Source of the DNA: Acidobacteriota bacterium
Lineage (GTDB): Bacteria; Acidobacteriota; Vicinamibacteria; Vicinamibacterales; 2-12-FULL-66-21
Direction of reading: 5' to 3'
Length of the DNA stretch: 64,000 nt
Assembly: GCA_046734955.1 (NCBI GenBank)
Contig: JBKPSH010000021.1
Span: 11,968 to 75,967 of the forward strand
Positions 1,317-61,838 of this stretch are shown one piece after another; the stretch's first letter is position 1, and every line of letters starts with the position of its first letter. Position numbers and translations under genes: made by a program. Under the pieces are notes generated by a model that was not told the DNA's origin, made no database searches, and was given only the letters and a program-made list of their open reading frames with translations.

Positions 1317-1409
1317 CAATTGGTGAATTCGTAAATTGGTGAGTTTGTGAATGGGCGCGAACAGCTCTAATTCACCAATTCACCAATTGACCAATTCACC
1401 AATTCATTC
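1317..1409. repeat. AATTCACC-word inverted tandem-repeat element (hairpin)
   Basis: The left arm is CAATTGGTGAATTCGTAAATTGGTGAGTTTGTGAATGGG. The right arm is five tandem AATT(C/G)ACC octamers. The arms are reverse complements and fill the atpG-atpD spacer. Confidence 0.9.
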
Positions 1410-2267
1410 CGCTTGTCCTCCCGCAATCTCCAGCAGTTCCTTGGTGATGTTGCCCTGCCGCAATTTGTTGTATTCCAGCTTGAGGTCCTTGATCAGGTTC
1501 TCTGCGCTGTCGGTGGCGTTCTTCATCGACACCATCCTGGCGCTCTGTTCGCTCGCCTTCGCATTCAGCAGCACGTAATACAGATAGACGTTGAGGTACG
1601 TGTCGACCAGATACGCGAGCAGCGCCTCCGGGCTCGGTTCGAATGTCGGCTCGGCCTCAGACGCCAGCGTGTCTTCCGATTCCGCCCCCGGAACCTGCAG
1701 TCCGACGATCCGTCCGACCGGGAGGAACTCGATCGTCACCGGTTCCTGCGTCAGCGTGTTCACGAACTTCGTCGCAATCAGCTGGACCTGATCGACTTCG
1801 CGTTTCAGGAACATGTCGCGCGCGAGCGAAACAATCGCCCGCGCTTCGGCAAAGGTCGGCGAATCACCGTATGCGAATTCAGCGGCCAGCTGCCGTCCGG
1901 TGCGCGCGACGAACTGCGCCGCTTTGCGTCCGGCGGTGATGAAGACAGTCGTGCGTTGATCGAACTGCGATGCGAGCCGAAAGACGTTCGTGTTCAGCGC
2001 TCCGCACAACCCCTTGTCCGCACCAATCAGCACCACCGCACGTTTGCGAACTTCGCGCGGCTCGAGGAGCGGATGCGTGAATGCGCGCGAGTGGGCCGTC
2101 GCGCTGCGCTGAATGCGATACAGCAGCCGTGCGAATGGCCGTGAATCGAGTGCGGCCTGTTGTGCCTTGCGCATTTTCGACGCGGCGACCATTTGCATCG
2201 CCTTGGTGATCTGCGCGGTGCCGCTGATCGATTTGATCCGGCGTCTGAGATCGCGGGGGCTGTTCAT
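1404..2267 (-). CDS. atpG: F0F1 ATP synthase subunit gamma
   Basis: ORF 1404..2330. The conserved N-terminus MNSPRDLRRRIKSISGTAQITKAMQMVAASKMRKAQ starts at the internal Met (2267). The 21 upstream codons are only a translation of the heptamer repeat. Confidence 0.93.
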   Translation of the reverse strand: MNSPRDLRRRIKSISGTAQITKAMQMVAASKMRKAQQAALDSRPFARLLYRIQRSATAHSRAFTHPLLEPREVRKRAVVLIGADKGLCGALNTNVFRLASQFDQRTTVFITAGRKAAQFVARTGRQLAAEFAYGDSPTFAEARAIVSLARDMFLKREVDQVQLIATKFVNTLTQEPVTIEFLPVGRIVGLQVPGAESEDTLASEAEPTFEPSPEALLAYLVDTYLNVYLYYVLLNAKASEQSARMVSMKNATDSAENLIKDLKLEYNKLRQGNITKELLEIAGGQAE

Positions 2268-2284
2268 AAAGGAGTATCGCTTGT

Positions 2285-58662: not shown

Positions 58663-60699
58663 TTAATCGATACCAAGCGCGGCGAAGATGAACGCGAAGA
58701 TATCGGCGTCTTCTTCGATCGTCTTCGACAACGGTTTCCCCGCGCCGTGACCTGCCTTGGTTTCAATCCGGATCAACACCGGCGCGGAATGTCCCGCAGC
58801 CTGGAGTCGCGCCGCGAATTTTTTTGCCATCCCTGGCGCGACACGATCGTCAGTGTCTGCCGTCGTGATTAGGATTGGCGGATACGATGTGCCGTTGACG
58901 ACGTTGTGAAGAGGTGAATAGCGGTAGAGAAACGGAAACTGTGCGGGATCGTCGGCGGACCCGTACTCCGAAATCCAGAACCGGCCGACGGTGAGGTGGT
59001 GGTAGCGGAGCATATCGGCAACAGGAACGCGGCACAGCACGGCCCCGAACAGGTCGGGACGCTGCACCATCACCGCTGCGGTCAGCAATCCGCCATTGCT
59101 GCCACCCTCAATCGCAATCCGTTTCGGAGTGGTGTAGCCGTTCGCGACCAGCCACTCGGCGGCGGCGATGAAGTCGTCAAACACATTCTGTTTTCGCTCG
59201 AACATGCCGGCTTCGTGCCACGCTTCGCCGTACTCACCGCCACCGCGTAGATTCGGGACCGCGTAAATCCCGTCCTTCTCCAGGAGCACGAAGTTCGACG
59301 GGTCGAATGCCGGTGTCAGGCTGATGTTGAAACCGCCATAGCCGGTGAGCAGCACCGGCCGGTTGCCGTCATTCGGCAGTCCCTTCTTTGATACGAGGAA
59401 CATCGAAATACGCGTGCCGTCCTTCGACGAGTACCAGACCTGCCGGGTCTCGTAATCGTCCGCCTTGGCCTCAATCGCAGTGCGATCGCCGAACGGCGCG
59501 AGCTGGCGGCTGGTGAAGTCGTAGCGATAGTTGACGGCTGGATGCACGAAGGAGGTGAACCCCAAAAACATTTCGCCGTCTTCGGGGCGGCCGCTGACGC
59601 CGGTGAGTGATCCGAGTTCTGGCAACTTGACGTCTCCCGCCGGTTCGCCGGAGAGGGTGAACATCCGCAGCACATCGCTGGCGTGGTGCATATAGGCGGC
59701 GACGATCGTTCGGTGGATCACCGCTGCGGAAGACAACTTGTCCGTGCTTTCCGGCACGACTTCTTCCGGTGCGCGTTCGGGGGCCAGTGGGTCGACCGAG
59801 ATGATTCGCCCCCGCGGCGCGCATTCGTCGGTTCGGAACAAAAGCTGGCCGTGCGCCGACTCGATGAACGCGTAGGCGGCCGAGAACCCCGTGAATACTG
59901 GAAACGGTGTAGCCGCCCTCACGTGGCGATCGATTGCATACACTTCGCTTCGATCGCTCGATCCTTTGAACGCGGTGATGACCACCCAGCGGTCATCGTC
60001 GCTGACCTCCACCCCGAAAACTGTCTCGCGCTCGTTCGGCTTGTCGAAGATCAGTTGGTCGAGCGACTGATCATCACCGAGACGGTGGTAATAGACCTTG
60101 TTGAAATAGTTCTCATCGCCCGGTGCGACGGCGCCCGGTTCGGGAAAGCGAGTGTAGTAGAAGCCGCTGCTGTCTTTGACCCACGCGAGGCTGGCGAACT
60201 TCACCCAGAGCAGTCGATCGGGCAGATCGGTTCCGCTCTCCACGTGTCGAATGAGGATCACCTGCCGATCGCTGCCGCTCGTCGACAATCCATAGACCGC
60301 GAGCTCGCCTGAATCGTCGATCGCCAGAGCGGTCAGCGCGACGGGGCCGTCGGCGCGCATCGCGTTTGGATCAATCAGAACGCGGCCCGGGCCATCGGAC
60401 CCTTCCTGCACGTAGAGCACAGGTTGATCCTGCAGGCCGGTATTGTGCGTGAAGAAATAGTGCCGGCCTCGGCGGGTCGGCACGCTCGTGCGCGGAAAGT
60501 CGTAAAGCCTTGTCAGTCGTGTGACGAGCCCGTCACGAACAGGACCATCGACCACCGACCTCGTCAGCCGGTTCTCTGCCTCGACCCATGCGATGGTTTC
60601 CGTGCTGTCCGGATCTTCGAGCCAGCGATAGGGATCGGCGACGCGAGTGCCATGGTAGTCGTCGAACGTATTCGATTGTCGCGCTACCGGATACTTCAC
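58663..60699 (-). CDS. prolyl oligopeptidase (S9A) family serine peptidase
   Basis: ORF 58663..60981. The start is set at GTG 60699 (VKYPVARQSNTFDDYHGTRVADPYRWLEDPDS), which forms a GTGA overlap with the glk stop. The nucleophile motif is GGSNGGLL. Confidence 0.88.
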   Translation of the reverse strand: MKYPVARQSNTFDDYHGTRVADPYRWLEDPDSTETIAWVEAENRLTRSVVDGPVRDGLVTRLTRLYDFPRTSVPTRRGRHYFFTHNTGLQDQPVLYVQEGSDGPGRVLIDPNAMRADGPVALTALAIDDSGELAVYGLSTSGSDRQVILIRHVESGTDLPDRLLWVKFASLAWVKDSSGFYYTRFPEPGAVAPGDENYFNKVYYHRLGDDQSLDQLIFDKPNERETVFGVEVSDDDRWVVITAFKGSSDRSEVYAIDRHVRAATPFPVFTGFSAAYAFIESAHGQLLFRTDECAPRGRIISVDPLAPERAPEEVVPESTDKLSSAAVIHRTIVAAYMHHASDVLRMFTLSGEPAGDVKLPELGSLTGVSGRPEDGEMFLGFTSFVHPAVNYRYDFTSRQLAPFGDRTAIEAKADDYETRQVWYSSKDGTRISMFLVSKKGLPNDGNRPVLLTGYGGFNISLTPAFDPSNFVLLEKDGIYAVPNLRGGGEYGEAWHEAGMFERKQNVFDDFIAAAEWLVANGYTTPKRIAIEGGSNGGLLTAAVMVQRPDLFGAVLCRVPVADMLRYHHLTVGRFWISEYGSADDPAQFPFLYRYSPLHNVVNGTSYPPILITTADTDDRVAPGMAKKFAARLQAAGHSAPVLIRIETKAGHGAGKPLSKTIEEDADIFAFIFAALGID

Positions 60700-61772
60700 G
60701 CGCCCACCGACATCTGTTGTGCGTGCACGGCGGCGCCGAGGAGGCCCGCATCCGGGTTGAGGATCACGGCGACCGGAATCGTCGCGACGAAATCGGCCAT
60801 CGGTTCCTTCGCGCGGAACGCCTCGAGAAAGATGCCGGACTCGAGCGCGGGAAGAATCTTCGGCGCGATGCCGCCGCCGACGTAGACACCCGCCGTTGCA
60901 ACGGTGCGCAGCGCGATATTCCCCGATTCGGCGCCGTAAACCGCAACGAACATGTCGAGCGCCTCGACGCAGTGCTCGCACGTACGGTCCATTGCAGCGC
61001 GGCTGATGCGCGCGGGCAATTCCGCTGGATCGCTGACGCGACCCACGCCTTCGCAGAGACGCGACGGAAAGACGGATCCCTGCATCTGTGCCCGGTTCGC
61101 GGATTGATGAGAGAACTGGTAGATCGGGACGATTCCTGGCTCCGTGCCGAACGACTGATGCGTGAACTGGTAGACATTGACCAGCCCGGGACCCGAAAGG
61201 ATAGCTTCTACACTCACTCGACCGTAAATCCGCGTGAGCTCGCGCAACAGCTCGAATTCACGGGGCGTACGCGCCGCAAAATCCGCGTGACCTCCCTCTG
61301 ATGCGCTCGGCACGAAGCGTCCGTGTACGTTGAGCAGCATCGCCTCGCCCAGGCCGGTGCCGGCGGCGATCACGGCGGCGTTGCCGTTGGGGTGTGCGAC
61401 TCCGCGCTGAAGTATCGACAGCTCGTCGTCTTCGAGAACCGTGACGCCGTACGCCATCGCTTCAAGATCGTTCAGAACATGTGAGCGGCGAAAGCCAAGG
61501 CGCTCTCTAATCGACTCGCCTTCGACGAGCCATGGCACATTCGTCAGACGCGCGACTTGATCGGTCACCGCACCCGCGACACCAAAAGTTGCTGCGTCGA
61601 CATGCTTCGGTTCGACACTGCGCGATTTGAGAAACGACTCGATCATCGGTTCGAGTCCCGAATAGTCGAGTGTGGTGAATTCTCCGACATCGATCGCAGA
61701 CGGACGATCCGGCCTGGCCGTAAAAAGACCGAGCAACGACTTCGTCCCACCAATATCGCCCGCCAAGAGCAT
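60696..61772 (-). CDS. glk: glucokinase
   Basis: 358-aa ORF with the N-terminus MLLAGDIGGTKSLLGLF and ROK-less Glk-type sequence. It contains a short internal duplication (see findings). Confidence 0.88.
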   Translation of the reverse strand: MLLAGDIGGTKSLLGLFTARPDRPSAIDVGEFTTLDYSGLEPMIESFLKSRSVEPKHVDAATFGVAGAVTDQVARLTNVPWLVEGESIRERLGFRRSHVLNDLEAMAYGVTVLEDDELSILQRGVAHPNGNAAVIAAGTGLGEAMLLNVHGRFVPSASEGGHADFAARTPREFELLRELTRIYGRVSVEAILSGPGLVNVYQFTHQSFGTEPGIVPIYQFSHQSANRAQMQGSVFPSRLCEGVGRVSDPAELPARISRAAMDRTCEHCVEALDMFVAVYGAESGNIALRTVATAGVYVGGGIAPKILPALESGIFLEAFRAKEPMADFVATIPVAVILNPDAGLLGAAVHAQQMSVGA

Positions 61773-61838
61773 GGCAGCACATTCTAATTCACCAATTACT
61801 CTTGACTTTCATCTCAGAGTGGCCGATCTTCGCGATGA

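Follow-up and report, generated by a model that had tools for sequence, protein, structure and literature searches.

The intergenic spacers of an Acidobacteriota genome carry a dense set of short tandem words, many of them arranged as the two arms of a hairpin. The stretch analysed, called the window here, comprises 64,000 nucleotides (contig JBKPSH010000021.1 of assembly GCA_046734955.1, positions 11,968 to 75,967), and these 64 kb were the part of the source genome that was examined. The host is Vicinamibacterales-like: homologues of its AtpG and Fpg at about 80% identity carry the NCBI names Vicinamibacterales or Acidobacteriota. The elements are tandem-word repeats of the heptanucleotide kind already described as long simple sequence repeats (LSSR) and, in cyanobacteria, as short tandemly repeated repetitive sequences (STRR), with units of 7 nt and sometimes 8 or 10 nt. 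They are dynamic between close relatives. Two of the arrays, E13 and E14, enclose a PF05635 gene, and together they form a cassette like an intervening sequence (IVS) that lies outside rRNA. PF05635 is the family of the 23S rRNA intervening-sequence protein (S23p/IVP, 'four helix bundle protein'), whose members are standalone relatives of Avd, a factor of diversity-generating retroelements. We give about an even chance to the reading in which the elements are word hairpins that are driven by slippage, evolve in concert and form stems of the RNase III type where cistrons meet.

Tandem word arrays in the window

Arrays with a period of 6-10 and at least three copies were searched with Tandem Repeats Finder (TRF), and overlapping arrays were merged. 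The window held 18 merged arrays covering 963 bp, compared with a mean of 1.0 array and 25 bp in thirty second-order Markov simulations of the window. A preliminary description, made from the letters of the window, had reported several families of tandem words. Arrays with a period of 7, 8 or 10 were found by TRF at every coordinate that it gave, so the elements are real, and at least seven unrelated words occur within the 64 kb. Its loci 40675-40689 and 61783-61800, given as members of one word family, turned out to be single 11-nt word matches and not arrays.

The inventory consists of 16 intergenic elements (E1-E16) and one array within a gene. Intergenic and coding DNA were separated with a gene map checked by Pfam scans. 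Most of the element bases (1155 of 1275) are intergenic, and the elements make up 31.7% of the 3642 bp of intergenic DNA versus 0.2% of the coding DNA. This is an enrichment of about 160-fold, in agreement with the intergenic placement that had been described. The statement that almost every spacer longer than about 60 nt is occupied was too strong, since 14 of 23 such spacers (61%) hold an element. All types of gene junction are used, as had been noted: nine elements lie between same-strand genes, five between convergent and two between divergent genes. In one atp operon, the atpB-atpE, atpA-atpG and atpG-atpD spacers are each filled, each by a different word. The arrays also supply the C-termini GKGKSKR*, SITNH* and RPRINTNHG*, as the preliminary description had claimed; its further claim that the DUF523 gene starts in a repeat depends on an unverified start codon.

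An assembly artefact was ruled out. A contig of an independent metagenome-assembled genome (L001) matched the window with 99.94% identity over 6.4 kb spanning E13, the IVP gene and E14, that is, two arrays. The sequencing runs that hold the window sequence are soil metagenomes, and contigs from independent soil runs covered the array edges without differences. CRISPR loci consist of 24-48 nt repeats between unique spacers of similar length. The units in the window stand head to tail without spacers, so CRISPR was rejected, as it had been in the preliminary description.

The elements are as follows.
E1, 1317-1409, minus strand: 8-mer hairpin of AATTCACC/GGTGAATT that fills the atpG-atpD spacer; TRF; inverted arms of 35 nt, 89% complementary; minimum free energy (MFE) -42.5/-42.7 kcal/mol, z -6.4/-8.1
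E2, 2285-2384, minus strand: hairpin of CAGTTTC (5.6 copies) and AACTGGN (7.6 copies) in the atpA-atpG spacer; TRF, fold z -5.3/-6.9
E3, 5146-5242, minus strand: composite element of the atpB-atpE spacer, with one GGATCC and one CCGTGTTNAT module; no fold as a whole, z +0.8
E4, 18377-18410, plus strand: small hairpin of the word TCAATGA between a transglutaminase-like gene and the next open reading frame (ORF); TRF, fold; 12-bp stem within a weakly significant fold, z -2.1
E5, 21340-21405, no strand: GGATCC-module hairpin between convergent SSF symporter and DUF1259 genes; z -4.7/-6.1
E6, 23086-23141, plus strand: CCGTGTTNAT array with a single arm, at the 5' end of an SLT_2 transglycosylase gene or upstream of it; no fold
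E7, 28647-28707, no strand: one-armed CCCTTTT array (8 copies) between convergent histidine kinase and Ser/Thr kinase genes; supplies the tail GKGKSKR* of the kinase; no fold
E8, 31261-31339, no strand: CAGTTTC/ACTGGGA hairpin between divergent cyclophilin and BlaI-like repressor genes; z -6.6 (plus), -3.6 (minus); 91% match to E2
E9, 34677-34704, plus strand: single ACTGGNA arm between BlaR1-like and MacB/FtsX genes; TRF; no fold
E10, 37243-37345, no strand: TGCTGAT/ATCAGCA hairpin between convergent genes; z -7.8/-9.5
E11, 40629-40689, plus strand: GGATCC-module element between Haem_bd and RidA-fusion genes; TRF; z -3.9 on the minus strand
E12, 41739-41814, plus strand: composite, reverse complement of E3, overlapping the stop codon of the RidA fusion; repeat search, alignment
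E13, 45508-45709, minus strand: AATCCTCG/GAATC array with periods of 8 and 23; forms the 3' arm of the stem around the IVP gene; TRF, fold
IVP gene (PF05635), 45712-46107, minus strand: 131 aa; Pfam E 1.2e-17
E14, 46144-46238, minus strand: array of GATTC words, period 15 and 7-8; 5' arm of the IVP stem, overlapping the VKOR stop codon; TRF, fold
E15, 52648-52725, no strand: TGCTGAT/ATCAGCA hairpin between a hypothetical gene and ftsH, convergent; z -5.4/-4.9
E16, 61783-61800, no strand: single AATTCACCAATTAC word in the divergent glucokinase/MerR-TPR spacer; weak 11-mer match, no fold; possibly the seed or remnant of an array
In-gene array, 51502-51529, minus strand: TTTTCCC (4 copies) in the Lhr helicase gene, the only array within a gene body; TRF; the region 51483-51542 encodes a Lys/Gly-rich stretch, and the word is that of E7

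Folding and dispersed copies

The MFE of each element was compared with that of dinucleotide shuffles. Seven elements (E1, E2, E5, E8, E10, E11 and E15) folded clearly, with z-scores of -4 to -9.5 and MFE values of -35 to -58 kcal/mol. E3, E6, E7, E9, E12 and E16 gave no fold better than the shuffles. About half of the elements are hairpins and the rest are one-armed arrays. The foldability predicted in the preliminary description was thus borne out for the seven hairpins, but its view that the words usually have a complementary second arm applies to about half of the elements. The stem of E2 consists of serial 6-bp helices with a 1x1 mismatch, i.e. one unpaired position, in each 7-nt unit.

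The same elements recur at unlinked loci, and we could confirm that these are dispersed copies and not only the product of local slippage. In the repeat search, 37244-37277 (E10) and 52691-52724 (E15) were 100% complementary over 34 of 34 nt. The perfect match is limited to one arm, and the loop and the other arm have diverged. E10 and E15 share the termini CTGAAA...TTTCAG, and no target-site duplication was seen at their flanks. The repeat search also paired 23087-23125 with 41745-41783 (92% complementary), 21342-21375 with 41782-41815 (97%) and 5163-5202 with 41775-41814 (88%). In a multiple alignment, E3, E6, E5 and the reverse complements of E12 and E11 align as one composite family of GGATCC and CCGTGTTNAT modules at five loci.

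Gain, loss and resizing in orthologous atp operons

Orthologous atp operons were compared in five relatives (L201-L205; AtpG identity 92, 90, 89, 82 and 80%). In the window, and likewise in L201, L202 and L205, a word hairpin lies in the atpA-atpG spacer, but it is built of different words: [A/G]CCAGTT and AACTGGA in the window, CCCAGCT and AGCTGGN in L201, [T/C]CCAGTT and AACTGG[C/T] in L202, and CTGTCAG and CTGACAG in L205. The place of the hairpin is constant and both arms switch word together. In three lineages the periodic mismatch falls at one and the same position of the unit.

The other two spacers varied in length and content. The atpG-atpD spacer is 103 nt long in the window, where it is occupied by E1, and 31 nt in L202, where a single GAATTCACCAATTGC is followed by the same downstream sequence; in two other relatives it is 4-7 nt. 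The atpB-atpE spacer has a length of 115 nt in the window; in L201 it reaches 242 nt, and in L202 it has 18 nt. L201 carries the same composite as E3, with a 27-nt higher-order unit in six copies, and the composite is missing from L202 and L205. Presence/absence polymorphism, which the preliminary description had named as a sign of mobility, thus exists among these operons, together with copy-number polymorphism.

The IVP cassette

The preliminary description had listed 45516-45709 and 46145-46237 as two further word blocks. They are arrays, but it had overlooked that they enclose a gene of the 23S rRNA IVS type and form one long stem. This gene (45712-46107) is the sole PF05635 gene of the window. 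Its protein covers 105 of 106 positions of the Pfam profile, and its direct match to PDB 2gsc is weak (E 0.5). In the MFE fold of the 741-nt sense RNA, E14 and E13 pair over about 80 bp around the gene. The energy of the E13/E14 duplex is -104 kcal/mol versus -51 +/- 6 kcal/mol for a shuffled arm. The cassette does not sit in a 23S rRNA helix: Rfam and tRNA scans gave no matches in the window, and there is no rRNA in it.

The cassette is flanked by genes for VKOR and a class A penicillin-binding protein (PBP), with Fpg/Nei and FdhD genes nearby. The VKOR-IVP-PBP locus is kept in relatives with 91% and 84% Fpg identity. In the DNA of the 84% relative, the word types are those of the window and the arms are shorter. 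The same locus in relatives indicates that the window cassette is vertically inherited, with only arm length changing, so mobility of this cassette was not supported. A diversity-generating retroelement, which would have a reverse transcriptase and template/variable repeats beside the Avd-like gene, was also rejected, since the neighbours are Fpg/Nei, VKOR, PBP and FdhD.

The words of E13 and E14 occurred in soil contigs at about 20 times the depth of the flanks, and the contigs continued in diverse ways exactly at 45507 and 46238. Some soil contigs join both arms without the IVP gene, and in L204 these word types make up a hairpin that is empty.

IVP genes and heptamer hairpins in other genomes

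The word ACTGGNAACTGGNAACTGG was found in more than 119 stretches of species-representative genomes, from Acidobacteriota, Planctomycetota, Cyanobacteria, Desulfobacterota, Poribacteria, Omnitrophota, Bacteroidota, Verrucomicrobiota and other phyla. Away from the seeded match, 1.3% of the bases of these loci lie in short-period arrays, mainly of period 7. Five of 119 loci fetched by the word carried an IVP gene, with arrays directly on both sides in all five.

For a general test, 80 metagenomic loci (L121-L200) were selected by IVP protein similarity alone. The alignment that contains the divergent IVP of the window (A1) was too diverse for a locus search; the search therefore sampled the mainstream IVP subfamily, to which the window IVP is only about 25% identical. 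A short-period array lay within 200 nt of the IVP gene at 75 of the 80 loci, and arrays stood on both sides at 45 of 74. The period was 7 in 123 of 138 arrays beside IVP genes. Arrays made up 15.8% of the bases in IVP flanks versus 1.2% at more than 400 nt. The upstream flank was also compared with the reverse complement of the downstream flank, with the 95th percentile of shuffled controls as the cut-off. Inverted similarity exceeded it at 64 of 74 loci, and direct similarity at 13 of 74.

The arm words vary by locus and are more alike where the proteins are more closely related (Spearman -0.16, permutation p 0.001). Pairs with more than 70% protein identity differ at 0.86 word positions, versus about 3.2 for distant pairs. 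On the sense strand, upstream words contain AG (mostly AGT or AGG) at 62 of 68 loci and CT at 10 of 68; the window cassette has the opposite polarity. No other gene family recurred within same-word inverted pairs, and pairs 150-2500 nt apart flank ordinary genes. In about 1 Mb of fetched loci, 74 same-word inverted pairs had loops of at most 150 nt versus five that bear an IVP gene, which means that most hairpins are empty.

The same cassette anatomy was present in finished plasmid records of Gemmatirosa, Riemerella, Picosynechococcus and Azospirillum lipoferum. On the plasmid of Picosynechococcus sp. PCC 7003 (NZ_CP016476.1, 126182-127299; L222), the IVP gene with its inverted AGGAGATA/ATCTCCTA arrays lies in a type III-B CRISPR-Cas operon, with cas10 on one side and cmr3 on the other. 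A large clustering study lists '23S rRNA IVP' as CRISPR-associated (PMC10910872), and this case may explain the listing. On plasmid AZO_p2 of Azospirillum lipoferum 4B (NC_016586.1, 14001-15145; L223), a 23S rRNA gene contains an IVP ORF that is not annotated. Its flanks are 23S rRNA (Rfam large-subunit model, 510 bits, model positions 877-1670) and its stem is made of inverted tandem GAGGACG words. The insert is a classical 23S rRNA IVS built of heptamers.

Plasmids alpha and gamma of Nostoc sp. PCC 7120 (L218, L219) carry identical IVP genes with a downstream TCTGCCC array (4.9 copies) only. Upstream of the IVP gene, gamma has the end of an annotated ISL3 transposase gene, and alpha has similar sequence at this place. 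Given this adjacency, an insertion sequence may have removed the upstream arm.

In the searchable literature, we did not find the near-constant nesting of PF05635 genes in heptamer hairpins described, save for the single case of Coxiella.

Other features of the window

The genes identified with Pfam include the minus-strand atpBEFHAGD cluster; genes for a sigma-54 activator, PPK2 and a transglutaminase-like protein; a TonB receptor, kinases, BlaI/BlaR1 and MacB/FtsX; an extracytoplasmic function (ECF) sigma/FecR pair, a triple RidA fusion, FdhD, two class A PBPs, VKOR, Fpg/Nei, Lhr, FtsH, prolyl oligopeptidase and glucokinase. The RidA fusion (40687-41766) has 359 aa with three RidA/L-PSP domains, and the GGATCC-module arrays E11 and E12 stand on either side of it. 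In the BlaR1-like gene (33887-34121), a 31-nt segment is present in three direct copies spaced 102 nt apart, which probably encode a 34-residue protein repeat.

GC-rich palindromes that resemble repetitive extragenic palindromes (REP) are an unrelated repeat type, as the preliminary description had held. They lie at 13950-14030 and 22425-22510, with the core GCGCTACGGCG...GCCTTGGCG and fold z-scores of -1.3 and -2.5. Several more are found within the 354-nt atpA-atpG spacer of L203 (1413-1768).

The loop of E10 (37282-37303, plus strand) contains a GC-rich stem followed by a T-run and is the best terminator-like site in 28-47 kb. By its sequence, this inner stem resembles an intrinsic terminator, which would be that of the MacB/FtsX gene.

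Comparison with known repeats

Heptanucleotide LSSR (Mrazek et al. 2007) are summarised in PMC4679880. A survey ranks tandem heptamers first in abundance among the intergenic repeats of prokaryotes and sees 'no clear clue' to what they do (bioRxiv 10.1101/309039). The window elements share with LSSR/STRR the tandem units of 5-11 nt with 7 dominant, the excess over chance, the intergenic placement at many loci with several words, and the sporadic phylogeny. They differ in the prevalence of inverted two-arm hairpins, in composite modules dispersed as units, and in their acidobacterial host, a group outside the LSSR/STRR accounts cited here.

TAACTGA repeats occur in Beggiatoaceae, cyanobacteria and Bacteroidetes (PMC4679880), and Geobacter metallireducens has heptanucleotide families, some of them drawn as strand-switching pairs (PMC2700814). 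Like the window, these genomes have dispersed sets of 4-5 tandem heptamers near gene starts, some as strand-switching pairs. In them, however, one or a few words dominate, and a link to PF05635 is not reported in these accounts.

In the IVS of Coxiella, RNase III cuts a terminal stem of 28 bp, and a variable number of tandem heptamers adjoins the S23p ORF; S23p-bearing 23S rRNA IVS are known in Leptospira, Coxiella and Xanthomonas (PMC4990558). The window cassette agrees with them in having a PF05635 ORF within a stem of complementary termini and tandem heptamers of variable number. It differs in that it lies between VKOR and PBP genes and has much longer arms (95 and 200 nt), and RNase III cleavage would apply here by analogy.

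A REP family consists of one conserved imperfect palindrome of 20-40 nt mobilised by a REP-associated tyrosine transposase (RAYT), and REP elements stabilise upstream mRNA. Like REP, bacterial interspersed mosaic elements (BIME) and the inverted pairs of REP known as REPINs, the window elements are short intergenic hairpin repeats at convergent and intercistronic junctions. Their arms, in contrast, are arrays of short words that can pair in several registers, many words are used, and there is no RAYT in the 64 kb. Miniature inverted-repeat transposable elements (MITEs) are likewise small, non-coding and dispersed, with terminal inverted symmetry and presence/absence polymorphism. The window elements differ from them in having no parent insertion sequence and in the internal repetition of their arms, and no target-site duplication was seen at E10 or E15.

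Proposed origin and possible role of the hairpins

In the explanation that we favour, replication slippage would make and resize the arrays, and concerted evolution, through gene conversion or repair within the hairpin, would hold the arms complementary. The transcribed stems of 30-90 bp at cistron boundaries would be sites of RNase III-type double-stranded RNA processing or barriers at 3' ends, and they could segment operon transcripts such as that of atpBEFHAGD. The rRNA IVS would be a precedent for processing, as it has the same anatomy as E13-IVP-E14 and such stems are cut by RNase III. In a minimal version, the stems would merely be tolerated because they are harmless at cistron boundaries.

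Several results weigh against a role of the stems in RNA. The hairpins fold about equally on both strands and lack the strand asymmetry that selection at the RNA level would leave. G.U-compatible sense-strand mismatches in IVP stems (61) are no more frequent than A.C mismatches (63). The one-armed half of the elements cannot act as stems. In a more distant lineage (P0070, 79%) the atpA-atpG spacer is 5 nt long, and the hairpin is thus neither essential nor universal. Terminator-like sites were not enriched over shuffles in the window and only the inner stem of E10 qualified; since the word hairpins have no T-runs and the site counts are at shuffle level, a function as intrinsic terminators was rejected. 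None of the RNA runs that were searched for the window held it. Concerted evolution alone could also preserve the complementarity of the arms without any function.

Because of the missing strand asymmetry, the one-armed elements and the dispensable atpA-atpG hairpin, a neutral or selfish origin remains a strong rival. The arrays would then be slippage-prone junk in weakly selected spacers and gene tails, with no role in the cell; inverted arms would arise by template switching and be kept by gene conversion. We regard this as a real possibility, though not a probable one. It would fit elements that come and go and change copy number between genomes whose proteins are still about 90% identical, and purifying selection on coding DNA would by itself lead one to expect the enrichment in spacers. 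It does not fit the persistence of the atpA-atpG hairpin down to 80% AtpG identity with arms that change word jointly, nor the periodic mismatch at the same unit position in three lineages. The strand-asymmetric words upstream of IVP genes (AG versus CT) would not be predicted by symmetric slippage either.

The elements could instead be non-autonomous mobile elements like MITEs or REPINs, whose copying to new sites depends on a factor from another locus (a RAYT/IS200-type enzyme, for example, or the IVP protein itself); the IVP cassette would be their loaded form. The unlinked copies (E10/E15 with their shared termini, and the family of E3, E12, E6, E5 and E11) point in this direction, as do the insertion-like atpG-atpD polymorphism with its one-word empty site, the deep soil contigs with diverse continuations and gene-less joins, and the covariation of arm words with IVP relatedness. 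Nevertheless, Pfam scans found no transposase, RAYT, reverse transcriptase or Y1 enzyme among the proteins of the 64 kb, and no target-site duplication was seen at E10 or E15. Their single identical arm fits gene conversion better than transposition. In addition, the IVP cassette has a single locus across relatives, with vertical inheritance, and we know of no catalytic activity of PF05635. We therefore consider such mobility unlikely.

It is very improbable that the words are arrays of multimeric sites for a DNA regulator, a nucleoid protein or a translational regulator of mRNA, even though one-armed arrays stand directly upstream of start codons (E6, E9, E11 and E12), a regulatory role has been proposed for the TAACTGA repeats and the Geobacter families (PMC4679880, PMC2700814), and array length near IVP genes has a mode of 30-33 nt: the unrelated words of the window and the differing words at orthologous sites would call for many different binding specificities, the analysis turned up no candidate binder, and the preferred length of about 31 nt was left unused as it is probably an effect of the detection threshold.

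A further idea goes beyond the slippage-made stems that we favour. PF05635 proteins and the tandem-heptamer hairpins may make up a single, widespread system of two parts, in which the empty hairpins are bound, made or spread by the pentameric protein. The IVP gene would nearly always sit in the loop of a heptamer hairpin, be it part of 23S rRNA, of an intergenic spacer or of an operon. The arms would descend with the gene, with words oriented relative to it, and the far more numerous empty hairpins would be the non-coding counterparts of IVP hairpins in the same genomes. We put this forward with low confidence and regard it as doubtful at present.

Significance

Short-read contigs of relatives end within word arrays (L215, 4780-4889), and many soil contigs break at array borders (window positions 45507 and 46238). 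Word arrays fragment short-read metagenome assemblies and can yield spurious gene starts and tails.

The window adds a new lineage in which period-7-type repeats are very dense and in which their gain, loss, resizing and co-varying arms can be measured. It ties heptamer repeats to a concrete precedent, the S23p-bearing IVS with its RNase III-cut stem. The link between IVP genes and heptamers, seen at 75 of 80 loci and in a genuine rRNA IVS, merges two questions, namely the role of the S23p/IVP protein and the reason for heptamer repeats. If proteins and hairpins do belong to one system, this would account for period 7 being the commonest intergenic repeat in prokaryotes.

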